Positions 1-37,442 of a DNA stretch of 49,364 nt are shown here, piece by piece. The stretch's first letter is position 1. Each line of letters begins with the position of its first letter. Location: contig JBBUGO010000014.1 in assembly GCA_038056025.1 (NCBI GenBank), positions 1-49,364 of the forward strand, given 5' to 3'. The notes beneath the pieces are model-generated. The model was not told where the DNA came from and did no database searches. It saw only the letters and a list, made by a program, of their open reading frames with translations. This stretch comes from Patescibacteria group bacterium (GTDB lineage Bacteria > Patescibacteriota > Minisyncoccia > 2-02-FULL-40-12 > GWA2-44-9). The position numbers and the translations under genes are program-made.

Positions 1-1
1 C

Positions 2-199
2 GTACGACGGAAAAAACCTACCGCCGCCATGGAAGAGGAAAAATTTTCCGGGTATCGCAATCAGCTTGCCCAACGCGTTGAGCTTGTCTTCGATGGACTG
101 GTGGGGCTTGGCCTGAGGGCACGCATCATCCCCACGGATGAACTGAAACAACTTTTTTATGCATTCTATAATCCCGGCGTGAGAATCACCCAACCGTAA
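2..199 (+). CDS. VirB4/TrbE-like type IV secretion ATPase, upstream segment (5' end outside window)
   Basis: The frame is open from the window edge to TAA at 197-199 (...RNQLAQRVELVFDGLVGLGLRARIIPTDELKQLFYAFYNPGVRITQP*). It is absent from the ORF track because it has no in-window start. Its stop lies 1 nt before the ATG at 201. Confidence 0.5.
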   Translation, partial: VRRKKPTAAMEEEKFSGYRNQLAQRVELVFDGLVGLGLRARIIPTDELKQLFYAFYNPGVRITQP

Positions 200-200
200 T

Positions 201-1949
201 ATGGCATTTCGAGAAACCGAACAACTGATGCCCGATGCGCTCGCGCCGTCTGCGCTCAATATTTCGTCGACGCATGTCCAGATTGGACAGAAACTGGTGC
301 GGACCATCTTTCTTGCAACCTACCCGCGCTATCTTCATACCAATTGGTTTGCGTCTATCGTCAATCTGGATCGCGAACTATCCATTTCCATCTATGTCGC
401 GCCAAAAAATACCGCTACAGTCCTAAAACAACTCCGCGACCAGCTTGCGCGCCTTCAGGCACAAGCATTTGACGAGGCCGCCAAGGGAAAGGTGCGTGAC
501 CCGCTTCTGGAAACGGCTATCGCCGACATTGAAACGTTGCGAGATAAGCTCCAGCAGGGAACTGACAAATTCTTTGACCTTGGTGTCTATATCACATTCT
601 ACGAGAACGACCTAAAAGCGCTCGAGGAAGCCGAAAACAAAATCCGCGGACTCTTGGAATACCAGCTGGTGTTCCCGAAACCGTCCATCTTCCGCATGGT
701 TGAGGGATTTATGTCGACACTGCCCCTGAACGATGACCGCCTCCAAATCTCCACGCCGCTCAACACCGAACCCATCTCGTCAATCTTTCCCTTTGTCTCG
801 TACGACCTGACATCGGATTCGGGTATTCTTTACGGCATTAACACCCATAACAACTCCCTGGTACTGTTTGACCGATTTGATCTGGAAAATGCTAACAGTG
901 TTGTGTTTGGAAAATCGGGAGGCGGTAAAAGCTATGCCGTAAAACTTGAGATTCTCCGAAGCTTAATGTTCGATACGCAGGTCCTCGCCATCGACCCCGA
1001 AGAAGAATATAAGTTCTTGGCAGAAACCGTTGGTGGAACTGTTGTCAAAATTTCCATCAACTCTGATCAGCACATCAATCCGTTTGATCTACCCATACCT
1101 AAAGAGGGGGAGTCGCCCTCTGACGTCTTCAAATCCCATATCCTTGACCTTGCGGGCCTTATGAAGCTCCTCCTGGGGGAATTGACGCCGCAGGAGGATT
1201 CTATTCTCGATGAGGCGCTCATGCAGACCTATGCCATAAAGGACATCCTGCCGGATAGCGATTTCTCCCAATCGCAACCGCCGCTTTTGGCCGATCTCCA
1301 GAGTGTGCTTGAGGGAATGACGGGCGCAGATGCCATGGCAGTACGCTTGCGCAAGTTTACCCAGGGCACCTTTGCGGGATTTCTCAACCGACCCACCAAT
1401 GTCGCCCTCAATAACCAGCTCGTGGTGTTCAGTATTCGCGATATGGAGGAGGAGCTACGGCCTATCGCCATGTACCTCGTGTTAAGCCATATCTGGACAC
1501 AAGTACGTCGCGAATTGCGTAAACGCCTGTTGGTGGTTGATGAGGCCTGGTGGCTTATGAAATATCCCACGGGGGCGGATTTTCTATTTAATATCGCCAA
1601 ACGAGGAAGGAAATACTACGTCGGACTTACTACCATTTCCCAAGATATACCGGATTTCATGGCAACGCCCCAGGGAAAGGCCATCGTCACCAATTCCTCA
1701 ATGCAGATCCTCATGAAACAGTCGCCAGCCGCCGTTGATATCATCCAGCAAACGTTCAATCTGACTGACGCAGAAAAATATTATCTTCTGGAGGCGCGGG
1801 TTGGATTCGGTCTCTTCTTTTTAGGACAGAACCATATCGGCATCCGCGTAGTTGCATCCTACGCCGAGGATCAGGTCATCACATCTGATCCGCGCCAGCT
1901 TCTAGAAATCGAAAAAGCAAAGCAGGAATGGGCAAAAATGACACAGTAG
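201..1949 (+). CDS. VirB4/TrbE/TraC-like secretion ATPase (ATPase portion)
   Basis: 582 aa. Walker A is GKSGGGKSY and Walker B-like is LLVVDEAWWLM. The overall layout matches VirB4-family conjugation/T4SS ATPases. Confidence 0.8.
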   Translation: MAFRETEQLMPDALAPSALNISSTHVQIGQKLVRTIFLATYPRYLHTNWFASIVNLDRELSISIYVAPKNTATVLKQLRDQLARLQAQAFDEAAKGKVRDPLLETAIADIETLRDKLQQGTDKFFDLGVYITFYENDLKALEEAENKIRGLLEYQLVFPKPSIFRMVEGFMSTLPLNDDRLQISTPLNTEPISSIFPFVSYDLTSDSGILYGINTHNNSLVLFDRFDLENANSVVFGKSGGGKSYAVKLEILRSLMFDTQVLAIDPEEEYKFLAETVGGTVVKISINSDQHINPFDLPIPKEGESPSDVFKSHILDLAGLMKLLLGELTPQEDSILDEALMQTYAIKDILPDSDFSQSQPPLLADLQSVLEGMTGADAMAVRLRKFTQGTFAGFLNRPTNVALNNQLVVFSIRDMEEELRPIAMYLVLSHIWTQVRRELRKRLLVVDEAWWLMKYPTGADFLFNIAKRGRKYYVGLTTISQDIPDFMATPQGKAIVTNSSMQILMKQSPAAVDIIQQTFNLTDAEKYYLLEARVGFGLFFLGQNHIGIRVVASYAEDQVITSDPRQLLEIEKAKQEWAKMTQ

Positions 1950-1955
1950 CATTCC

Positions 1956-2378
1956 ATGGCCGATATTACTTCAGAAGAACAAGTCCAAGTCGAGCTTGAA
2001 CGACAGCGGCAACGGGGTCTCCAACCGGCGGAGGGGGGTCAATCAGGCCAGGCCGACTCGTCTCAACGAGAAGAATCCCTCGGTTGGGTCGTGTCTTTTT
2101 GCCTTATCGTTGTTTCTCTTATCGGAGATGCCGTCGAGATTATGACGATAGGGACATTGGGATGGTTTGTGGGGCTCTTGTGCGACGGCATTCTTCTTGT
2201 GGTCCTCGGCTTCACGAAAAGCGGTAAAAAACACTTCCGCCGCGTGCTCGTGGGTGTTTTCGGAGAACTCATCCCGGGACTCAACATCCTCCCTCTACGG
2301 ACAGTCTTCGTGCTCTGGGCAATTATTAAATCACGCAGTACCACCGTACAGCACGTTGCGCGTCTAACCTCACCATGA
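1956..2378 (+). CDS. Small polytopic membrane protein, function unknown
   Basis: 140 aa with a charged N-terminus followed by about 3 hydrophobic helices. It is tightly packed after the VirB4-like gene and overlaps the next ORF by 4 nt. Confidence 0.5.
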   Translation: MADITSEEQVQVELERQRQRGLQPAEGGQSGQADSSQREESLGWVVSFCLIVVSLIGDAVEIMTIGTLGWFVGLLCDGILLVVLGFTKSGKKHFRRVLVGVFGELIPGLNILPLRTVFVLWAIIKSRSTTVQHVARLTSP

Positions 2379-3463
2379 GCGAACACCGTTGGTTACTTAT
2401 TCTTGTCGTCATCGTTGTCGCCGCAAACATATTTGTGGGGAGTTATCTTTGGTGGTCACAAAAGACCGAACTGCCCGTTGCACATATTGCGCGTAGCGTT
2501 GCCGAAAACACTCCGGGTGAGGAGGACCTGCCGGTCTCCTTGCGCCTCACGCGAGTTAATTCTGAACGAGTGCTCTTTCCGACCATCACACGCGGAGGCA
2601 ATGTCAGGTTTTGGGATGCCGGCAACGCAACGTTCGCAGAGTCAAAGCCCGACGGGGGACAGTACCAAACACTTGCTACGCTTTTGCACACCGCCGTTCG
2701 GGACGTAGTATGGAGCCCGGATGGATTTACGATCGCCGCGTTAGTCGATTCTGCCATGCTCCACGGTTGGCAACTCTTCGATCTTCGTACGGAATCGTTT
2801 CGATCCCTTCCGGCCAATGTGCTCGCCGTCGCGTTTTCGCCCAAGGGGGACGAGGTCGTGTATCTTGAAAATGACGGCGCTCGGGGACGTATCGTGGTAA
2901 CGCTTGCCGATGGAACCGGTGCAAAAGAGATTTTGGCAACACGCATGAACAGCGCAGAACTTTCCTGGCCAACTCCGGAACGTATCGCGCTCATCGCCAC
3001 CGATAGCGACGGGTTACGTACTCTCTATCTTCTCGGCCTTGATGGACGGCTTGTCCAAGTCATTCAGGGACGCAGCCAGCTTCATGCCGTATGGTCGTCT
3101 GACGGCTCCCGGGTACTCCTTTCGTGGTTCGAAGATGGCTCGCTTCACACCAGTATCATTACCCTTGCTACCGCTCGAGAGGATGCCCCTCCCATCACAA
3201 CGCTCGCATCGAAATGTGCGTGGTCCACGGTTACCGCATTCGTCTGCGGCATGCCCAAGACGCCACTTTCCAGTGAGGGATACGGCAATACCGTGGTGCC
3301 CGATGTCCTCGCGGTTACCCGTATGACAAATGACACCCCATGGGTCACCACTACCTATGCAACGACTCCGCTGAGTGTGCGAGAGACGTTAACCCACGGA
3401 GGGTGGGGGGTTGTCCGCAATGCCTACGATGGTCTTCTCTGGTCGTTTATTATTCCGCAATAG
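2375..3463 (+). CDS. Membrane-anchored TolB/PD40-like beta-propeller repeat protein
   Basis: 362 aa with an N-terminal TM helix. It has repeated motifs VWSPDG, AFSPKGDEVVY and VWSSDGSRVLL, typical of PD40/WD40-like propeller blades. Confidence 0.55.
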   Translation: MSEHRWLLILVVIVVAANIFVGSYLWWSQKTELPVAHIARSVAENTPGEEDLPVSLRLTRVNSERVLFPTITRGGNVRFWDAGNATFAESKPDGGQYQTLATLLHTAVRDVVWSPDGFTIAALVDSAMLHGWQLFDLRTESFRSLPANVLAVAFSPKGDEVVYLENDGARGRIVVTLADGTGAKEILATRMNSAELSWPTPERIALIATDSDGLRTLYLLGLDGRLVQVIQGRSQLHAVWSSDGSRVLLSWFEDGSLHTSIITLATAREDAPPITTLASKCAWSTVTAFVCGMPKTPLSSEGYGNTVVPDVLAVTRMTNDTPWVTTTYATTPLSVRETLTHGGWGVVRNAYDGLLWSFIIPQ

Positions 3464-14179: not shown

Positions 14180-15862
14180 TCATAACACGCGCCGTATTTC
14201 CTCAAGCGACGTGATGCCCTCCAATAATTTAAGGTATCCATCCTGAAGCATAGTCACCATGCCTTCCTTAATTGCAAGCTCGCGCACTTCCGAAATGGCC
14301 GGCTGGGCTAGGATCAGCTTTTCCATCGTTTTAGTGACAAGGAAGACTTCGTATACGCCGATGCGGCCCTGATAGCCGGTCATATTGCACTGCGTGCATC
14401 CCGCGGATTCGTAAATTGTTGCCGTGGCGAGGTTGGGAACGGAAAGGCGTGCGCGAATCGGCCCGAGCTGTTCTTCCGCTTCTTTTTTATCTGATGCCGA
14501 GAGTTTTGTGGCCCTTTTGCATTTCTGGCAGAGGCGCCGCACGAGTCGCTGGCCCATGGCGAGGATGATGGCGGGGGCGATAATCGGCGGACGTATGCCC
14601 AGATCAATAAGGCGCGGGATTGTTCCCGCCGCATCATTGGTATGGATCGTGGAGAATACCAGGTGGCCCGTCAGTGCGGCATTCAGCGCGATATCTGCCG
14701 TTTCATTATCTCTAATTTCGCCCACGAGGATGATATCGGGGTCCTGGCGAACAATGGCGCGCAGGCCGTTTGCGAACGTGTAATCCTTTGAAGGATCCAC
14801 TTGTGTTTGAGAGATACCCTCGATGTGATACTCGATCGGATCCTCGATCGTGATAATTTTTGTATCGGATGAGTTGAGAAAATTGACGAATGCATACAGT
14901 GTAGTCGTTTTTCCCGAACCCGTAGGGCCGGTGGTGAGGATGGCACCATTGGGTTTTGCGAGTTGTTCCTTGACGACGGCGAGAATATCGGAGCGCATAC
15001 CCAAACTCTCAAGGTCCGCACGGATGGTTCGCGGATCCAAGAGACGAAGCACGATCGTCTCGCCATACTCACTCGGTAGCACGGAAACACGAACCTCGAT
15101 AGGCGTTTGTGCGTGTCGGATGGTGAAACGTCCATCCTGCGGTGCTTTGTGAATATTCAGCTTAAGTCGGGAGAGCACTTTAACGCGATTGAGAATGCGA
15201 CCATAGTAGTCCTCGGAGAGTCGGCCGACGTCTTGGAGGAGGCCGTCCAAACGAAAACGGATGCGTGCTCCGGTTGATTCGGACTCGAAGTGGACATCCG
15301 AGGCATGCACCGTAAGCACTCCCGCAAGGAGTGTTTCAAGGAGCTCGGTGGTGGAAGCGCTTCCTAGGGCGGCTTCCACATCGCTTAAATTCTTTATTTT
15401 CCCCGAGAGCGCCTCGATTTTCTTTTCATCAATATCGATTGCCCCTACCTCAAATGTTTCTTGGGGTTTTTCGTGTCCGTAGCGCTCGTATGCGCGGTTT
15501 AATCCCGTCGGGGTGGTGACGATAAGGGTAAGTTGGAAATTTCGAGTACGGAGCTGCTCGGTGACCGCTTGGGTCTGGGGATCACGAGGATTCAGCACGG
15601 CGATGGTAAGCGCGGAACCGCTTTGTCCGATGACTGCGATAGTGCCGCGGCGCGCGGTCGGCTCATCAACAAGCATGAGGGCATCGGGGTCAATGGGGAT
15701 TGCGTTAAGGTCAGAAAAGGGAAGTCCCGCTTGTTTGGCTATTGCCTGGGCGACGGCGTTCTCCTTCTGGGTAGCTATAGACGACAATTTTCGTTCGAGT
15801 TCTTGCTCGAGTTGGGTCGTTTTACTTTTTTGCGTGTGAGCGGGTTGATTGGGCATGTCCAA
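14180..15862 (-). CDS. pilB: GspE/PilB-family type IV pilus / type II secretion ATPase
   Basis: 560 aa. Walker A is GPTGSGKTTT. It has Asp/His boxes and a C-terminal tetracysteine cluster, CQKC...CTQC. Confidence 0.9.
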   Translation of the reverse strand: MDMPNQPAHTQKSKTTQLEQELERKLSSIATQKENAVAQAIAKQAGLPFSDLNAIPIDPDALMLVDEPTARRGTIAVIGQSGSALTIAVLNPRDPQTQAVTEQLRTRNFQLTLIVTTPTGLNRAYERYGHEKPQETFEVGAIDIDEKKIEALSGKIKNLSDVEAALGSASTTELLETLLAGVLTVHASDVHFESESTGARIRFRLDGLLQDVGRLSEDYYGRILNRVKVLSRLKLNIHKAPQDGRFTIRHAQTPIEVRVSVLPSEYGETIVLRLLDPRTIRADLESLGMRSDILAVVKEQLAKPNGAILTTGPTGSGKTTTLYAFVNFLNSSDTKIITIEDPIEYHIEGISQTQVDPSKDYTFANGLRAIVRQDPDIILVGEIRDNETADIALNAALTGHLVFSTIHTNDAAGTIPRLIDLGIRPPIIAPAIILAMGQRLVRRLCQKCKRATKLSASDKKEAEEQLGPIRARLSVPNLATATIYESAGCTQCNMTGYQGRIGVYEVFLVTKTMEKLILAQPAISEVRELAIKEGMVTMLQDGYLKLLEGITSLEEIRRVL

Positions 15863-22715: not shown

Positions 22716-22997
22716 GCCGCGGTAGCTCAGTGGTAGAGCGCAGCCCTGAAATCTTTGGGGCTTTCCGTCGAGAGACGGATTGAAAAATCGGGTGAACTCG
22801 GGAAACACCCCGCCTTTGCGGGACAATCCCGAGCCAAGCCCCGACCATGTCGGGGAAGGTGTAGAGACTATCCCGCAAGGGAGTACTTCTGCCTAAGGCG
22901 GAGGGAAGCGCCCGAGTCGCTTTAAGCGATATGATATAGTCCAATTCAGCTTCGGAAGAGGCTGGCGTCGGGTGTTCGATTCACCCCCGCGGCACCA
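22716..22997 (+). tRNA. tRNA-Phe (anticodon GAA) interrupted by a group I intron; CCA encoded
   Basis: Exon 1 is 22716-22747 (GCCGCGGTAGCTCAGTGGTAGAGCGCAGCCCT). Exon 2 is 22955-22997 (GAAGAGGCTGGCGTCGGGTGTTCGATTCACCCCCGCGGCACCA). Joined, they form a canonical cloverleaf with anticodon loop CUGAAGA. Confidence 0.8.
22748..22954 (+). ncRNA. Group I intron (IC3-like, no internal ORF)
   Basis: P1 pairs AGCCCU (22742-22747) with GGGGCU (22757-22762), with U.G at the splice site. P10 pairs GAAGA (22955-22959) with UCUUU (22752-22756). The terminal G is at 22954. The core strings GAGCCAAGC, GAAGGTGTAGAGACTA and CCTAAGGC resemble the Azoarcus tRNA-Ile intron as I recall it. Confidence 0.75.
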
Positions 22998-31845: not shown

Positions 31846-33162
31846 GTGGATTTAGGAACTTTTGCCAATTCGCGACGCGTCCTTTATATCCTCGTAGCCG
31901 GTATTGTTCTGCTGGTGTTTTTGACCGTGATTCTTATCGTCAGAAGTTTCGGTGATCGAAATGCTGACCGGGCGGTGCTTCGGTTTTGGGGAGTATTTGA
32001 CCTACCAGCGGCATTTGAACAGGTGGTACGAGAATTTGAGGGGCTTCATCCGAATATTCGCATTGAATATTCGCAAATGAGCTATGAGGATTACGAAAGC
32101 TCGGTGATCAGCGCTTTAGCGGCCGGGACGGGACCCGATGTTTGGATGATTCACAATACCTGGCTTCCCAAGCATGCCGATAAGCTTCGCCCCATGCCCA
32201 ATGAGGTGCTTAGTCAGCAGGGTATGACGACGCGAGAGTTTCAAGACGCATTCGTTGAGGTGGCCTATGCTGATTTAGTGCGCAATGACGGCATCTATGC
32301 ACTCCCCCTATATATAGATACGCTCGGGCTCTACTATAACCGCGATTTGTTCAATGCCGCTGGCATCGCCAGTCCGCCGCGAACATGGAAAGAATTTCAA
32401 GATGTCGTTGCGCGGCTGACAAAATTTGACCAGAGCAATAACATTATTCAGTCCGGTGCGGCGATCGGCTCGGCACGCAATATCAATCGTTCGACCGATA
32501 TTCTCATGTCGCTCATGCTGCAAAGCGGGGTACAGATGACCGATCCCGGGGGAACGTCAGCGACATTTTCCCGTTCCGTGGATAACCAGCGCGTAGGAGA
32601 CAACGTGCTCCAGTTCTATACGGATTTCACCAATCCCTCAAAGGTGGTGTACTGCTGGAATGATGATCAGCACTACTCCATCGATGCTTTTATAGAAGGT
32701 ACCACCGCGATGATGTTTAACTATGCGCATCAACAGGATGTATTGCGTACACGCGCATCACGGCTGAACTTTGCGGTTGCGCCGATACCCCAACCAACCC
32801 TTGACGACGTGCGCACCTACGCGAGCTACTGGGCGCCTGCCGTATCAGCCGCATCATTGTATCCCGAGCAAGCGTGGGCATTTGTTCAGTATCTTGCGTC
32901 GCGTCAAGGCGCGCTTGCCTACTTGAATACTGCGCGGCGACCAGCGGCGCGGCGCGATCTCATTGAACTTCAGCGTAACGATGCCGATCTAGGCATCTTT
33001 GCGGTGCAGGCGCTTGCGGCGCGCTCATGGTATCAAGCAGACAGCCAAGCCATCGAGACCATCTTCGCTGACATGATTGATGATGTGAATTTCAGCCGTG
33101 CGTCCATTCAGGATGCGCTGGAGCGTGCAGAAAACAGGGTATCAACTCTTATGAACCGGTGA
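31846..33162 (+). CDS. Extracellular solute-binding protein (ABC family 1-like), membrane anchored; no permease or ATPase partner in the window
   Basis: 438 aa with a GTG start and an N-terminal TM helix. Its length and motifs (PDVWMIHNTWLPK, YIDTLGLYYNRDLF) are typical of sugar-type SBPs. It overlaps the next gene by 4 nt. Confidence 0.7.
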   Translation: MDLGTFANSRRVLYILVAGIVLLVFLTVILIVRSFGDRNADRAVLRFWGVFDLPAAFEQVVREFEGLHPNIRIEYSQMSYEDYESSVISALAAGTGPDVWMIHNTWLPKHADKLRPMPNEVLSQQGMTTREFQDAFVEVAYADLVRNDGIYALPLYIDTLGLYYNRDLFNAAGIASPPRTWKEFQDVVARLTKFDQSNNIIQSGAAIGSARNINRSTDILMSLMLQSGVQMTDPGGTSATFSRSVDNQRVGDNVLQFYTDFTNPSKVVYCWNDDQHYSIDAFIEGTTAMMFNYAHQQDVLRTRASRLNFAVAPIPQPTLDDVRTYASYWAPAVSAASLYPEQAWAFVQYLASRQGALAYLNTARRPAARRDLIELQRNDADLGIFAVQALAARSWYQADSQAIETIFADMIDDVNFSRASIQDALERAENRVSTLMNR

Positions 33163-34295
33163 TGCGCAAGACATTTCTCATACTAGGTACGGTCGTGGTT
33201 CTCTTCAGCGCGTTGGCTCCCATTGCGTATGCCGTTGACTGGTGGCCGCTGGTGCCGTGCGGACTAAATGAGCCCCCAGCCGGTAGGCCGCGATTAGATG
33301 CCTCCTATTATCAGCCGTGCAATCAGTGCGATCTCTTTAAGCTTTTCAAAAACATTATTGACTTCATTCTCTTTGGAGTGGTACCTGTTTTCGGCACGCT
33401 GTTAGTGGTGGTTGCGGGATTTATGATGCTCCTAGGCGGCGCTAATCCATCGCTCTATTCTCGGGGCCGCGCAATGTTACAGAATGTCTTTTACGGCATC
33501 ATGCTCATCGCATTCTCATGGCTCATTGTAACGTCGCTCTTGCGCACCGTGCTGGGCGATGAGAACAAGGCAACCCAATGGTGGAAGATTTCCTGCACGG
33601 CAAGAGTGCCGGGCGTCACGCCGACCCCTACACCAGCTGCGGGTAGTTGTACTGGGGTGGCATGCTCTGGCGATACTTCAAGTGTATGTGGGCCTGTAAA
33701 TCCCGGTGACGGCTGCGACGTCGGAGTAATTGGCGGACTTGCAAGCGATATTTCTGCTGGTGCTGGCACGAGAAGTGTTTGTTCTGGTGTAGATACCGTA
33801 AAACTTCTCAAAGCAGTTATGGCCAATGAAACGGGAGGGCGATTCATTAATTCCAATGACGGCAAATCCGCGGGGCCATACCAGCTAACCATAGACACAG
33901 CTAATAGATTCATGAGCGCCTGTGGCGTTACGGCGACCATCGATTTTGACTGGCTTAATACGAGAAACACACTATCAGCGCAATCATGTATAGCGGCTGA
34001 ATTCCTGAAAACACTGGTAGGTCCATGCGGATGCGATGTGCGCCAGTTAGCGGCGGGCTACAATGGGGGAGGAGCCCAGCTTGGTGCATGCGAAACGAGT
34101 ACGAATTGTGGACCTGCGGCAAAAGCCCAGGGCGGGGAATGCTCCATGTGTGCGGGCCAGACCGGACCGACGCGGCGGTGGGAATGCTTATGGGACGATA
34201 ATGAGCATAAAGTTTGCAATAAAGATCGCGCTGGGAACTTCAGTGCAACACGAATCTATGCTCCGCACGTGGAATTTTGCTATGGCGTTTTCTAA
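33159..34295 (+). CDS. T4SS-pilin-like N-terminal domain fused to an SLT/VirB1-like lytic transglycosylase domain
   Basis: It has a signal peptide and the motif LVPCG...PCNQCDLFKLFKNIIDFILFGVVPVFGTLLVVVAGFMMLLGGANP, a two-TM hairpin. The C-terminal SLT motifs are ANETGG, GPYQLT and AGYNGG. The protein is Cys-rich. Confidence 0.65.
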   Translation: MMRKTFLILGTVVVLFSALAPIAYAVDWWPLVPCGLNEPPAGRPRLDASYYQPCNQCDLFKLFKNIIDFILFGVVPVFGTLLVVVAGFMMLLGGANPSLYSRGRAMLQNVFYGIMLIAFSWLIVTSLLRTVLGDENKATQWWKISCTARVPGVTPTPTPAAGSCTGVACSGDTSSVCGPVNPGDGCDVGVIGGLASDISAGAGTRSVCSGVDTVKLLKAVMANETGGRFINSNDGKSAGPYQLTIDTANRFMSACGVTATIDFDWLNTRNTLSAQSCIAAEFLKTLVGPCGCDVRQLAAGYNGGGAQLGACETSTNCGPAAKAQGGECSMCAGQTGPTRRWECLWDDNEHKVCNKDRAGNFSATRIYAPHVEFCYGVF

Positions 34296-34323
34296 ACGGT
34301 GTTTTTACGAGAAGTGATATAAT

Positions 34324-35496
34324 ATGAAAGTGCATTGGAAAAGAACTCTATTTATCTTTTTATTCACACTCTGGGCAAGTGGAGGTTTTCTTTTCAGTTC
34401 CCAGAATTCTTATGCGGCCGAATCCGGCGTTTCCGTTATCTTTGACGCCCTGCCGGGTGTTAATCCAAAGATTTTACCTCTTGACGGCAGGGTGCCTGTA
34501 GCGCTGAGGGTGATTATCCGCCTTGAACAATACAGCGCTTTTTGCGGGTATCCCAGTATAACTAGCTTTAGGTGGTCTGTTTTAGCAGAATTTAGCAATA
34601 CAGCTGATCAAACTTTTGTTACCAAAACAGTTTCGTTCGAAAGAACCTCCGCTGTCGTTTCCAGAGAAATAAGTGACACTATCGTCATCCAAGACACTGG
34701 CGTGGGCAGAACAGAGGACTATACCTATAAGTTGTATGCTCTTATAGAATGTCACGACGGGACTAATGCGGCCGAGTCGTCCCGTGTTAGTGTTACTGCC
34801 GGGTCAGGCGATACAACATATACCTGCGTGGCACCAGAGGGAAGTGGGTACATCTACGCATGCAGTCCAGCAAACCTTTCTACTTGTTCTGATAATCCAA
34901 AATGTGCAGGCAAACCATGCTTTCAGATAAGAAAGAGTTTGTGTGGCGACCCCGCCCCTCCGCCGGGCCCGACACCACCGCCTGGTGGGCCGGGCGTACC
35001 CGGGCCCACGGGTCAACCCGTAACCTTCAATTTCGAAATCCAAAACCCACTCAAGATCAACAGTTTCCTGGAATTTTTCACCACGATTGCGGTGTGGATC
35101 ACCAACATCGCTATTCCCATCGCGGTGGTTCTGATTGTCTATGCTGGGATTCTATTTTTAACCGCCGGGGCAGTACCGGCGAATGTTTCCAGGGCGCGCA
35201 CGATTTTGACGTATGTCATTATCGGTCTTGCGGTTATTCTTATCGGCCGTGGGTTCATTTCACTTATAGAAAGTGTTTTGAACCTCGGCGGTAGTACCAC
35301 AAGCCCCACAACAACCGTGTCACCCACAACTTCGGTGCCAGCAAAATGTGACCTAGCCAATCCGTGCCCCAGCGGCTATGTGTGTAACAGGAGTCAGGCT
35401 TGTATACGAGAACCGGTTGGTCAATGTACGTTGAGTAACCCCTGTCCGAGCGGATTTATATGTAATAGTCAGCTGAAATGTGTGCTCGATGAATAA
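34324..35496 (+). CDS. Secreted protein: N-terminal domain, Pro/Gly linker, T4SS-pilin-like TM hairpin, then two Cys-knot-like repeats
   Basis: It has a signal peptide. The linker reads PAPPPGPTPPPGGPGVPGPTGQP. The hairpin reads FFTTIAVWITNIAIPIAVVLIVYAGILFLTAGAVPANVSRARTILTYVIIGLAVILIG. The tail reads CDLANPCPSGYVCNRSQAC / CTLSNPCPSGFICNSQLKC. Confidence 0.6.
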   Translation: MKVHWKRTLFIFLFTLWASGGFLFSSQNSYAAESGVSVIFDALPGVNPKILPLDGRVPVALRVIIRLEQYSAFCGYPSITSFRWSVLAEFSNTADQTFVTKTVSFERTSAVVSREISDTIVIQDTGVGRTEDYTYKLYALIECHDGTNAAESSRVSVTAGSGDTTYTCVAPEGSGYIYACSPANLSTCSDNPKCAGKPCFQIRKSLCGDPAPPPGPTPPPGGPGVPGPTGQPVTFNFEIQNPLKINSFLEFFTTIAVWITNIAIPIAVVLIVYAGILFLTAGAVPANVSRARTILTYVIIGLAVILIGRGFISLIESVLNLGGSTTSPTTTVSPTTSVPAKCDLANPCPSGYVCNRSQACIREPVGQCTLSNPCPSGFICNSQLKCVLDE

Positions 35497-35901
35497 ATGA
35501 TGAAAATATTTCTCTGGGTCATGGTTCTTGCGGGTGTTGCTCTGGGCTTAGCGAGCCCCGTGCTTGGCGCTGCCATACCCATCGGCGGGCCGTTGGGGGG
35601 CGATAATTTATCGGGTCAGCCGGGGGTAGAGTTAACGGCAACCAAGATATTTAGTATACTGAATGGGTTCGCATGCTGGACAGCGCGGATAGCCGTTACC
35701 CTCATTCTTGCGGCACTGGCGGTCTATGCTCTGCAATTCTTTTTCAGCCGAGGCAATCCCTCTGCCGTGCAGTCGGCGAACCGCGCATTCTGGCTGGGCA
35801 TTGTTGGCATTATCGTGATCTTCGGCGCCTATACGATTATTGCCACGGTTGCCTATAGTGTGGGGGCGAAATCAAGTCCGTATCCTATTTTGTGTGACTA
35901 A
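35497..35901 (+). CDS. T4SS-pilin-like (VirB2/TrbC-like) small membrane protein
   Basis: 134 aa with a signal peptide and a two-helix hairpin, ARIAVTLILAALAVYALQFFFSRGNPSAVQSANRAFWLGIVGIIVIFGAYTII. Confidence 0.55.
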   Translation: MMKIFLWVMVLAGVALGLASPVLGAAIPIGGPLGGDNLSGQPGVELTATKIFSILNGFACWTARIAVTLILAALAVYALQFFFSRGNPSAVQSANRAFWLGIVGIIVIFGAYTIIATVAYSVGAKSSPYPILCD

Positions 35902-35911
35902 TACTACAACC

Positions 35912-36412
35912 ATGAAACGATATACCATTGCGGCAGTTGGCATTACGATAGCGGTGGTCTTTGTTGCCTCTGTGACCCTTGCTACCGCGGCGACACCTAC
36001 ATCTACATCAACACTTACACTTCCCCCTGGACAGCCAGTTACACTCCCATTTATAGAATATGTGGTTTCAAAATTGACCGACTTTTTGCTCTATATATCA
36101 GGCACGGTTGCGGTATTCTTTGTGGTGTTGAGTGGTATTTTGTGGGCTACATCGGGTGGCGATCCAGGAAAGCTAGAATCGGCAAAAAACATGCTCCGGG
36201 CCGCAATTATTGGTTCGATTATCATTTTTGGTGTTGGCGTGATTGTGAATACTATAGAAAACTGTATTCAGGGTGATTGTCTTTCAAGCCGCGGGTTTTT
36301 CGGTGGGGGCGGGCGAGTGCCGCGCGGAGCACCATGTAGCTATGACAGCCAGTGCGTTTCCCGGCGTTGTTCTCCCGTCTTGGTCGGCACGCGTATTAAT
36401 GTGTGTCAATAA
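35912..36412 (+). CDS. T4SS-pilin-like small membrane protein with a C-terminal Cys module
   Basis: 166 aa from MKRYTIAAVG. The hairpin reads LLYISGTVAVFFVVLSGILWATSGGDPGKLESAKNMLRAAIIGSIIIFGVGVIV. The tail reads CSYDSQCVSRRCSP...VC. Confidence 0.55.
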   Translation: MKRYTIAAVGITIAVVFVASVTLATAATPTSTSTLTLPPGQPVTLPFIEYVVSKLTDFLLYISGTVAVFFVVLSGILWATSGGDPGKLESAKNMLRAAIIGSIIIFGVGVIVNTIENCIQGDCLSSRGFFGGGGRVPRGAPCSYDSQCVSRRCSPVLVGTRINVCQ

Positions 36413-36471
36413 TCCCTGTTGGCATTGCCTTTTTTGTTGTACTATAGAGAGAAGTTCAATTATTATGATGA

Positions 36472-36867
36472 ATGTTTATGAAAGGGGGTGTGGTTGTGAA
36501 TAGAAAAGTTGCGACATGGGTGCGCGTAGGTGCCACACTCGCGATGTTCGCCTTGCCATTGGTGGCATTGGCGTTGACCAATCCCACTATCCCTGCAGGT
36601 ATCGGCGGACGGCCGGTGACCTTGAGTGAGATTGAGGACATTATTCGTCTTATTGCCCAGTTCCTCATTCTCATTAGCGTGGTAATTGCAGTCATCGTCA
36701 TTATTTGGGGCGGTATCGTGTGGATGACGGCGGGCGGCAGTGACGAGCGAGCAAAGTTAGGAAAAGGCATTATTCTCAAGGGTATTTTTGGTGCGGCAGT
36801 CATCCTCGGCGTAGGTGTTATTCTACAAACACTCGCAGGTATCGTAACGCGTCAATTCTTGCAATAA
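36472..36867 (+). CDS. T4SS-pilin-like small membrane protein
   Basis: 131 aa with a signal peptide. The hairpin reads IAQFLILISVVIAVIVIIWGGIVWMTAGGSDERAKLGKGIILKGIFGAAVILGVGVIL. The start is uncertain. Confidence 0.55.
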   Translation: MFMKGGVVVNRKVATWVRVGATLAMFALPLVALALTNPTIPAGIGGRPVTLSEIEDIIRLIAQFLILISVVIAVIVIIWGGIVWMTAGGSDERAKLGKGIILKGIFGAAVILGVGVILQTLAGIVTRQFLQ

Positions 36868-36879
36868 GTGTAAGTAGTT

Positions 36880-36923
36880 AAATCAAAACCCCGCCCTTCA
36901 GCTGAGTGGCGGGGTTTTGATTT
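36880..36923 (+). terminator. Strong hairpin terminator ending the pilin-like array
   Basis: aaatcaaaaccccgcc (36880-36895) pairs with ggcggggttttgattt (36908-36923). Confidence 0.7.
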
Positions 36924-36959
36924 GATGAAAGATGTATGGTTGGGGTAGGATACAGCCAC

Positions 36960-37043
36960 GCCCAGGTGGCGAAACTGGCAGACGCACCAGCTTTAGGAGC
37001 TGGCGATCGCAAGATCATGTGGGTTCAACTCCCACCCTGGGCA
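36960..37043 (+). tRNA. tRNA-Leu (anticodon UAG), long variable arm
   Basis: The sequence reads GCCCAGGTGGCGAAACTGGCAGACGCACCAGCTTTAGGAGCTGGCGATCGCAAGATCATGTGGGTTCAACTCCCACCCTGGGCA. The anticodon loop is TTTAGGA. Confidence 0.85.
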
Positions 37044-37442
37044 CTATTCCGAGATGCGTATCTTTTTACCCCTCGTCTTATCCAAACGTGGTAGGCGAAG
37101 CGTCAAAATACCGTTTTTCATGGATGCTTTGGCACTGTCAGCATCTACGTCGGCAGGCAGAATAATAGTGCGGGAAAACGGTCCCCAGTAAAGCTCCTGA
37201 TAGTAGTAATCCGAAGAGCCCACTCTGGTATCAGGGGTGCGACGACCCTTGATGGTGACGATGTCTTTCGCTACGGAAATATCGATGTCCTCGCTTTTTA
37301 CGCCTGCGATAGTGGATTGAATCACCACGTCGCTGTCATGCTGAAATACGTCAACCGTAAGCTGACCCTCTGGCTGACGAGGGGTGCGTTCGTGCCGTAT
37401 GGCAAGCTCCGACCCGCTCTGATTATCTTCGATATAGCTCAT
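37044..37442 (-). CDS. Hsp20/alpha-crystallin small heat-shock protein
   Basis: 132 aa. The alpha-crystallin core reads TVDVFQHDSDVVIQSTIAGVKSEDIDISV...ASMKNGILTLRLPR. Confidence 0.85.
   Translation of the reverse strand: MSYIEDNQSGSELAIRHERTPRQPEGQLTVDVFQHDSDVVIQSTIAGVKSEDIDISVAKDIVTIKGRRTPDTRVGSSDYYYQELYWGPFSRTIILPADVDADSAKASMKNGILTLRLPRLDKTRGKKIRISE

Follow-up and report, generated by a model that had tools for sequence, protein, structure and literature searches.

Patescibacteria, which live attached to host cells, account for a large part of bacterial diversity. Loci called VirB2-like pilin arrays of the Patescibacteria type IV secretion system (T4SS) have already been described for this phylum (PMC12102498, PMC10633639, PMC12857230), and the element analysed here, a set of five tandem genes in a 49,364-nucleotide stretch of DNA (contig JBBUGO010000014.1, positions 1 to 49,364, assembly GCA_038056025.1, Patescibacteria group bacterium; this whole stretch is referred to as the window), is a well-supported further example, of the Paceibacteria type. 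Profiles for PF18895 and VirB2, run against 3,035 genomes of the phylum, gave 441 arrays in 383 assemblies, with 2-11 pilin genes per array and an average identity of 25%; T4SS genes close to dnaA and a general absence of relaxases were reported as well (Quinonero-Coronel et al. 2025, PMC12102498). Transposon sequencing of Southlakia epibionticum, a cultured Saccharibacterium, revealed its T4SS genes and pilin series to be essential for epibiotic growth (Wang et al. 2023, PMC10633639; the essentiality is also covered by PMC12857230), and in Paceibacteria parasitising methanogens, T4SS pilin genes ranked among the genes of unknown function with the highest expression (Kuroda et al., PMC10936435). 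According to a 2025 review, the T4SSs of Patescibacteria are the only ones of the Gram-positive type with potential pili (PMC12857230).

The window locus fits the published definition of such an array, given as 2-11 pilin genes in tandem or one gene apart with about 25% identity (PMC12102498): it comprises five genes spaced by -62 to +59 nt, their cores are divergent (13-32% identity among the paralogues), and a VirB4 ATPase is encoded on the same contig. With the arrays reported in PMC12102498, with SEML1_0006-0019 of S. epibionticum ML1 (PMC10633639) and with the 'Sec secreted array' of N. lyticus TM7x, it shares the tandem same-strand arrangement of PF18895/VirB2-like genes, the very low identity from copy to copy and a monoderm-type T4SS with PrgI/VirB3 and VirB4 beside dnaA. 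Unlike the Saccharibacteria arrays, it does not reside inside the T4SS cluster; it further differs from the Saccharimonadia arrays in coming from a Yanofskybacteria-like (Paceibacteria) lineage, and from the published arrays in the fusion of its first gene to a lytic transglycosylase.

We put at roughly 0.7 the probability that the locus is the chromosomal pilin module of a monoderm-type (MPF-FATA-like) Patescibacteria T4SS and assembles as proposed below. Two features go beyond the literature consulted, namely a fixed, ancient order of paralogue classes and a widespread fusion of the pilin-like hairpin to a lytic transglycosylase domain; a word search, not exhaustive, of literature passages on Patescibacteria T4SSs found neither mentioned. 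For a machinery that is essential in the one species tested, the window adds a clean Paceibacteria-type example.

Architecture of the Array Proteins

The region 33159-36867 contains five consecutive open reading frames on the + strand, P1-P5 (Table 1). In agreement with the initial annotation, which had been made from the DNA letters alone and had postulated a signal peptide and a two-helix hairpin in each product, Kyte-Doolittle hydropathy analysis revealed three hydrophobic segments in all five proteins, an N-terminal one and two of about 20-35 residues. The N-terminal segment ends at an AXA-like site (AYA↓V, SYA↓A, VLG↓A, ATA↓A and ALA↓L for P1-P5, respectively), and the two longer segments are separated by the turn motifs GGANP (P1), AGAVP (P2), SRGNP (P3), SGGDP (P4) and AGGSD (P5), all as previously listed and each followed by 2-3 K/R residues. 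AlphaFold2 modelled helix-turn-helix hairpins at residues 55-93/96-131 of P1 and 248-280/285-322 of P2, with a mean predicted local distance difference test score (pLDDT) for the models of 78 and 74, respectively. Signal peptides and topology were assigned heuristically, from hydropathy and AXA-like sites, and the assignment is consistent with a cleaved signal peptide followed by a hairpin.

For two of the genes, the start was placed downstream of the mechanically called one. The P4 frame opens at TTG 35840, ATG 35912 being the more sensible start, and the P5 frame opens at 36472, with the likely start at GTG 36496, downstream of AAAGGGGGTG, from where a textbook leader is read.

The array is closed by an intrinsic-terminator-like hairpin, which the initial annotation had placed at 36880-36923 and which was recovered with a folding energy of -32.7 kcal/mol (z = -7.85; 0 of 200 shuffled sequences equally stable). 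A promoter and terminator scan returned counts not above those of shuffled sequence, and its loop rule made it miss this true terminator.

Relationship to PF18895 and TrbC/VirB2

The VirB2/TrbC-type architecture and the Pfam T4SS_pilin family had been suggested in the initial annotation, and the profile search corroborated the suggestion, with PF18895 (T4SS_pilin; gathering cut-off 26.6 bits) being the top Pfam match for all five proteins. P2 (28.6 bits), P4 (34.8 bits) and P5 (35.1-35.3 bits) scored above the cut-off. P1 and P3 are counted as PF18895 members through their one-per-genome orthologues, of which 17 of the 19 in the P1 family match the profile at E<=0.001 and 10 of the 12 in the P3 orthogroup at E<=0.01. 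Matches to PF04956 (TrbC/VirB2; cut-off 27.9 bits) were sub-threshold for P1 (16.1 bits) and P2 (11.2 bits); among the small-subunit orthologues, 12 of 18 matched this profile at E<=0.01, the best at E = 1.4e-6. An hhalign profile-to-sequence comparison with VirB2 of Agrobacterium pTiC58 brought helix 1, the loop and helix 2 into register, though only weakly. By profile comparison, the five proteins are thus PF18895 members and relatives of VirB2/TrbC, not VirB2/TrbC members by the curated cut-off.

With the VirB2/TrbC/TraA group (PF04956; Agrobacterium VirB2, RP4 TrbC, F TraA), the window proteins have in common the signal peptide, the hydrophobic hairpin with its short basic loop, the small size (P3-P5), the profile-level relation and a genome with VirB3 and VirB4. 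They differ in the monoderm host and in the presence of several obligatory paralogues, two of them with large extracellular domains, in place of a single major pilin. VirB2/TrbC genes stand beside virB3/virB4 and the other mating-pair-formation genes; in the present genome, PrgI/VirB3 and VirB4 are encoded on the same contig as the array, ~31-35 kb away across dnaA. A further comparison is offered by the Mbov_0395-family pilin-like conjugal transfer protein of Mycoplasma integrative and conjugative elements (NCBIfam NF045849), likewise a small two-helix protein of a wall-less/monoderm T4SS. P3, P4 and P5 gave matches to this model (E 0.0012-0.3) that remained sub-threshold, at 10.8-18.5 bits against a cut-off of 40, and the Mycoplasma system, in contrast to the window array, is a mobile element with a single copy of the gene.

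Other assignments were discarded. Protein Data Bank sequences, searched with single small-subunit sequences and with their profile, yielded only matches at chance level (a CFA/I fimbrial fusion, E=0.41; rhodopsins, E ~0.7-1.1), which were rejected. A phage lysis cassette of holin and endolysin was rejected as well, since none of the five proteins had a PHROG match at E<=0.01 and the flanks are conserved housekeeping genes. A tblastn search of 72,556 plasmids with P5 gave no match.

A Lytic Transglycosylase Domain on P1

P1 consists of the signal peptide, a Cys-flanked hairpin (residues ~55-131), a Pro/Thr linker and a C-terminal SLT domain (residues ~190-377) with 20 Cys. The initial annotation had noted an SLT domain on one paralogue, and this was verified for P1 by motifs, orthologue matches and fold. 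Taken alone, P1 scored 12.6 bits against PF01464 (SLT), under the cut-off of 21.3; 16 of 19 orthologues match this profile. In the alignment of 19 homologues, E223, G238, Q241, A297 and G299-Y300-N301-G302 are invariant and A298 is nearly so. Position 224 is Ser/Thr, with S224 nearly invariant and T224 in P1 of the window itself (ANETGG). The three signature motifs of family-1 lytic transglycosylases, E-S/T, G-x-x-Q and the A-G-Y-N-G block, are therefore present. The P1 family profile matched Escherichia coli MltE (E = 1.8e-4), and Foldseek returned MltE, MltF, Slt and goose-type (g-type) lysozymes as the best matches of the SLT domain, which was modelled with pLDDT >90. Judged by motifs and model, P1 carries a family-1 lytic transglycosylase domain with predicted activity.

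To see P1 beside known enzymes, its SLT domain resembles E. coli MltE and other family-1 lytic transglycosylases in signature motifs and fold, and the protein as a whole resembles the VirB1-type and Gram-positive T4SS hydrolases (Agrobacterium VirB1; pIP501 TraG, PrgK, TcpG) in being membrane-tethered and encoded together with T4SS parts. It differs from the VirB1-type hydrolases in its tether, a VirB2-like hairpin that places pilin and hydrolase in one polypeptide, and from this group in general in its Cys-rich SLT domain and in having no CHAP or amidase domain.

An exhaustive profile search of clustered proteins yielded 287 cluster representatives at E<=1e-30, and in 61 of the best 150 representatives hairpin and SLT domain were matched end to end in one stretch. 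By this profile evidence, the hairpin-SLT fusion is a widespread family and not an accident of this genome.

Added Domains and Cysteine Pairs of P1-P4

P2 comprises, in this order, a signal peptide, a beta-sandwich (residues 36-180, pLDDT 82-93), a Cys-rich stretch, a disordered Pro/Gly linker (residues 217-245, pLDDT <50), the hairpin (residues 248-322), a Ser/Thr/Pro linker and two C-terminal Cys modules of the pattern C-x-NPCPSG-x-x-CN-x-C. The N-terminal domain of about 200 residues with a Pro/Gly linker and the Cys modules that had been annotated initially are thus confirmed, and a Cys-rich tail, with a 6-Cys module, was also found at the C-terminus of P4. A fold search with the N-terminal domain of P2 gave only generic immunoglobulin (Ig)-like beta-sandwich matches, and therefore no specific function can be read from the fold. 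All of the added domains are attached to hairpin ends predicted to be outside, which is consistent with a location on the side of the peptidoglycan and of host surfaces.

Two proteins have cysteines at both ends of the hairpin. The P3 orthologue alignment shows two invariant cysteines, Cys60 immediately ahead of helix 1 and the C-terminal Cys133; P1 likewise has an invariant pair, one cysteine preceding helix 1 and Cys145 after helix 2. On the predicted outer side, these pairs may form a disulfide staple joining the hairpin ends. Head-to-tail cyclisation is known for VirB2 and TrbC; by analogy, the putative staple of P1 and P3 is reminiscent of this closure and could replace it.

Positional Orthology Across Related Loci

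Following a proposal in the initial annotation, copy number and variability of the array were surveyed in relatives, covering 24 related loci (Yanofsky-, Doudna- and Taylorbacteria, Paceibacterota) at one genome per species. A hidden Markov model (HMM) grown from the five hairpin cores of the window detected 88 further hairpin genes in these loci, giving 93 cores in total, and no extra copy in the window beyond P1-P5. In the related loci, the hairpin genes are nearly always grouped into arrays of 3-8 genes on one strand.

In other arrays, the gene matched by a window protein stands at the corresponding rank. The core of P5 shares 47-62% identity with the final gene of related arrays and no more than 36% with its own neighbours, and P5 is the most conserved subunit across genomes. 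Upon clustering, P1, P2 and P3 fell into one-per-locus groups (classes A, B and C), and P4 and P5 shared one group (class D). The gene order A(SLT)-B-C-D, with class D in 1-3 copies, recurs in at least 13 loci. The flanking synteny, gyrA-methyltransferase-solute-binding protein (SBP)-array-...-Hsp20-PrsW-ValRS, is conserved as well, so that the array is recognised as an old chromosomal module passed on vertically. Its paralogues are ancient and occur as four classes, A-D, in fixed order.

One explanation of such divergent paralogues is that the array stores interchangeable alternative major pilins for antigenic or host-range variation, as proposed for the VirB2 paralogues of Bartonella or Anaplasma; the initial annotation had likewise considered a phase-selectable appendage. 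The possibility has been raised for Patescibacteria arrays (PMC12102498), and it would suit the low core identity within the window, the variable number of class D copies and the Doudnabacteria-like loci with 7-8 members of one expanded group. It is, however, difficult to reconcile with the finding that for 90 of the 93 cores the best match lies in another genome and not in the core's own array, the median best identity being 63% between genomes vs 36% within the locus. Classes A, B and C moreover occur once per locus and in the same order in 13-15 loci, and the paralogues bear different fixed domains. Apart from the terminator hairpin and the 17-nt inverted repeat described below, scans for direct, inverted and tandem repeats gave nothing; the paralogues share no repeats, and neither an invertible segment nor simple-sequence tracts were found. 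Metagenome contigs with the array showed four point differences and no rearranged joints, a test of low power. We therefore regard a store of variants as very improbable, and phase selection was not borne out; positional orthology and the lack of variation signatures in the sequences favour differentiated, co-assembling subunits. Old, ordered, class-specific paralogues fit a multi-part assembly and not a wardrobe of variants.

A 17-nt inverted repeat (33122-33138 / 33384-33400), its arms separated by 245 nt and 94% complementary, encloses the SBP stop and the P1 start. By estimate, ~0.03 such repeats are expected by chance; as it is not conserved in eight related loci, it was taken as a coincidence.

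In seven related arrays (L003, L007, L013-L016 and L018), the class A and class B genes are 470-730 nt apart, a space that could accommodate an extra non-pilin gene without a counterpart in the window.

A database protein of 820 aa (P0191) contains eight tandem T4SS_pilin-like hairpins connected by linkers of 30-50 residues, corresponding to an array fused into one polypeptide. By a Rosetta-stone argument, this fusion suggests that the hairpins pack side by side.

Secretion System Partners of the Array

The initial annotation had reported a VirB4-like ATPase at 1-1949. A VirB4-type ATPase is indeed present, its open reading frame beginning only at 201, and bases 1-199 belong to a separate TraC-like frame corresponding to the VirB4 N-domain (Table 1). 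The sequence upstream of the window was read from contig CAYISC010000002.1 (assembly GCA_964366015.1), of which the window is part; the segment used there is designated locus L001. Positions 6421-9999 of L001 hold the rest of the TraC-like frame, PrgI/VirB3 and a 717-aa polytopic protein with ~7 hydrophobic segments, a long hydrophilic tail and no Pfam match, which is a candidate for an extended-VirB6 analogue. The earlier statement that no VirB6, VirB8, VirB9 or VirB10 genes are visible holds for VirB9 and VirB10, which, like VirB5 and VirB7, were not seen in the region examined; it needs amending in that PrgI/VirB3 and the candidate VirB6 analogue lie just upstream. Since these adjoin the window start, the apparent lack of T4SS partners, VirB6/8 included, is mainly a window-edge effect. 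A monoderm would not be expected to have VirB7, VirB9 or VirB10. Neither a relaxase nor a coupling protein was seen near the T4SS genes.

The two VirB4 halves (window 1-1949, L001 9373-11749), a 208-aa TraC-like N-domain frame and a 582-aa ATPase frame, are in different frames with a 1-nt gap between them, which could be a true split or an assembly frameshift. Directly downstream (Table 1), genes for a 140-aa protein with three hydrophobic segments and a 362-aa membrane-anchored protein follow. The latter gave weak WD40/beta-propeller matches. No known T4SS family was matched by either protein, and both may be T4SS components specific to this lineage.

The VirB4 frame and the array are separated by ~31 kb and lie on different sides of dnaA. 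The hairpin-core HMM found no pilin-like gene beside virB4 in L001, which leaves the array as the only candidate partner in the ~59 kb of contig examined (window and L001). The VirB4-type ATPase is presumed to be the motor of the same T4SS.

The distance from virB4, together with the position of the array within conserved housekeeping synteny, is also what one would expect if the hairpin were merely a reused membrane anchor and the anchored exo-proteins (a wall hydrolase, an adhesin and small peptides) served purposes independent of a T4SS, such as remodelling of the cell's own wall or division. P1 and P2 do resemble an anchored enzyme and an adhesin, and a pilin gene was reported near virB4 in only 1135 of 1948 assemblies (PMC12102498). 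On the other hand, three of the five genes encode no cargo domain at all, the PF18895/TrbC relationship points to a pilin role, the Saccharibacteria array forms part of the T4SS cluster and shares its essentiality (PMC10633639), and the window array is the only candidate partner of virB4 in the ~59 kb examined. We consider the anchor explanation improbable.

A link of the array to PilB, as initially annotated, was not upheld. The window encodes PilB, a T2SSE/type IV pilus ATPase, and type IV pili are important in Patescibacteria (PMC12857230), which might suggest the five proteins to be substrates of a type IV pilus or type II secretion machinery. Inspection of the five N-termini by eye, however, revealed no class III (prepilin peptidase) leader with a G↓F/M-T-L-I/V-E motif; the leaders are of the ordinary Sec type. 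The substrates of PilB are type IV pilins, which bear signal peptides of class III. No single N-terminal helix of the type IV pilin kind is present in any of the five, none matched a type IV pilin Pfam family, and all five match T4SS pilin models; pilB, moreover, is flanked by ruvB and nusA and has no adjacent pilus genes. A mechanistic link of PilB to the VirB2-like proteins is unsupported, and we give the substrate explanation practically no weight.

Proposed Assembly of the Array Proteins

The analysis shows the family to which the proteins belong, their architecture, the SLT signature, the T4SS genes nearby and the positional orthology; filament formation, co-assembly and a role for each class are inferred, as follows. 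Each of the five proteins would be exported via Sec, lose its signal peptide and reside in the membrane as a two-helix hairpin, the predicted orientation being N-out/C-out with a short basic loop in the cytoplasm. By homology with VirB2/TrbC, the VirB4 ATPase would extract the hairpins and stack them into an envelope-spanning tube or short pilus. Class A (P1), as a lytic transglycosylase, would open the peptidoglycan in a VirB1-like manner at the point of passage through the wall. Class B (P2) would display its Ig-like domain and disulfide-rich knobs and is a likely adhesin or tip/spacer subunit for host contact. Class C (P3) is a small subunit whose conserved Cys pair could staple its two ends, and class D (P4, P5) consists of plain small subunits, with P5 as the likely bulk and candidate major subunit. 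To judge from the analogy with Southlakia epibionticum, where such an array is essential, the complete assembly would probably serve contact or exchange with a host cell. The class order and the SLT fusion narrow what experiments on cultured relatives should target.

Several observations weigh against this reading. P1 (18.2 bits) and P3 (10.3 bits) alone remain below the PF18895 cut-off, and no window protein reaches that of PF04956, the best being P5 with 22.5-23.0 bits (E ~1e-4). The hhalign probability for the alignment with Agrobacterium VirB2 was a weak 20%, obtained with a single VirB2 sequence as the target, and the small-subunit profile matched no solved VirB2 or TraA pilin among the Protein Data Bank sequences. 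Signal-peptide cleavage and membrane topology rest on heuristics, and co-function of the array with VirB4 is presumed across the above-mentioned distance and from within a housekeeping neighbourhood. The roles given to classes B, C and D are conjectures drawn from their domains. Array sequence was contained only in groundwater DNA runs and in no RNA run. To our knowledge, a filament has never been observed for any of these proteins.

The main rival to assembly into a tube or pilus is that the hairpins are membrane-embedded channel or stalk parts, lining or gating a pore together with the VirB6-like protein, and form no extracellular filament; SLT domain, Ig-like domain and Cys knobs would then decorate the outer face. 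Gram-positive T4SSs are generally pilus-free, and VirB2 is needed for substrate transfer even without a pilus (PMC12857230). The sub-threshold matches to the Mycoplasma pilin-like model point in the same direction, the eight-hairpin polyprotein is easier to imagine in a bundle or ring within the membrane than in a helical filament, and the large N- and C-terminal additions of P1 and P2 would be awkward within a tightly packed pilus. Homology to the filament-forming TrbC/VirB2 argues against a mere pore part, as do the several small, plain class D subunits (1-3 copies), which resemble bulk building blocks, and the high expression of T4SS pilins in Paceibacteria (PMC10936435), which suits a polymer better than a single-copy pore component. 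We consider a pore lining unlikely, even though a short tube and a pore lining are indistinguishable from the present evidence.

As a more specific form of the tube or pilus, one may tentatively envisage a hetero-oligomeric conduit of fixed composition, in which class A, a VirB2-VirB1 fusion, is built into the tube or nucleates it and classes B, C and D take defined positions; we regard this as a doubtful, speculative extension. If it were true, the filament would carry its own lytic transglycosylase, with which it would cross the wall of the bacterium itself or breach that of a bacterial host at the site of contact, and class B would be the adhesive tip, class C a stapled adaptor and class D the bulk shaft. 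Such a conduit would account for most VirB2-bearing Patescibacteria seeming to lack a separate VirB1 and would constitute a first parts list for the essential host-contact machine of the phylum.

Genomic Neighbourhood

The window represents the origin region of the genome of an ultra-small, Yanofskybacteria-like groundwater member of the Patescibacteria, with Yanofskybacteria and other Paceibacteria-type Patescibacteria as the closest relatives (GyrA identity up to 77%), and its sequence is present only in groundwater metagenome runs. Its gene content is housekeeping (yidC, jag, dnaA, dnaN, class A penicillin-binding protein, tyrS, ruvB, nusA, tig, ftsH, gyrA, valS, tsaD), and it also holds many tRNAs and the transfer-messenger RNA. 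Coordinates are compiled in Table 1.

Table 1. Positions of the array genes and of other features in the window
Feature	Position	Strand	Remarks
TraC-like (VirB4 N-domain) frame, 3' end	1-199	+	remainder upstream of the window
VirB4-type ATPase domain protein	201-1949	+	TraG P-loop, AAA_10, DUF87
140-aa and 362-aa proteins	1956-3463	+	directly downstream of VirB4
PilB	14180-15862		T2SSE/type IV pilus ATPase
tRNA-Phe(GAA)	22716-22997	+	intron in anticodon loop
Membrane-anchored solute-binding protein (SBP_bac_1)	31846-33162	+	orphan, no permease/ATPase genes beside it
P1, class A	33159-34295	+	start called in public data ATG 33162, 377 aa
P2, class B	34324-35496	+	390 aa
P3, class C	35497-35901	+	small subunit, 134 aa
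P4, class D	35912-36412	+	small subunit, 166 aa from the likely start
P5, class D	36496-36867	+	plain small subunit, 123 aa, no Cys
Intrinsic-terminator-like hairpin	36877-36926	+	G+C-rich stem, then T-rich run; closes the array
tRNA-Leu(TAG)	36960-37044		directly after the terminator hairpin

The stop codon of the SBP gene overlaps the P1 start (TGATG). An SBP gene is located immediately 5' of the array in 15 related loci, with an intergenic hairpin between the two in some relatives, and a functional tie of the SBP to the array is possible.

The tRNA-Phe(GAA) gene contains a 207-nt group I intron in the anticodon loop (Rfam RF00028, 66.1 bits at 22738-22964); it was missed by ARAGORN with default settings and was found when introns were allowed.

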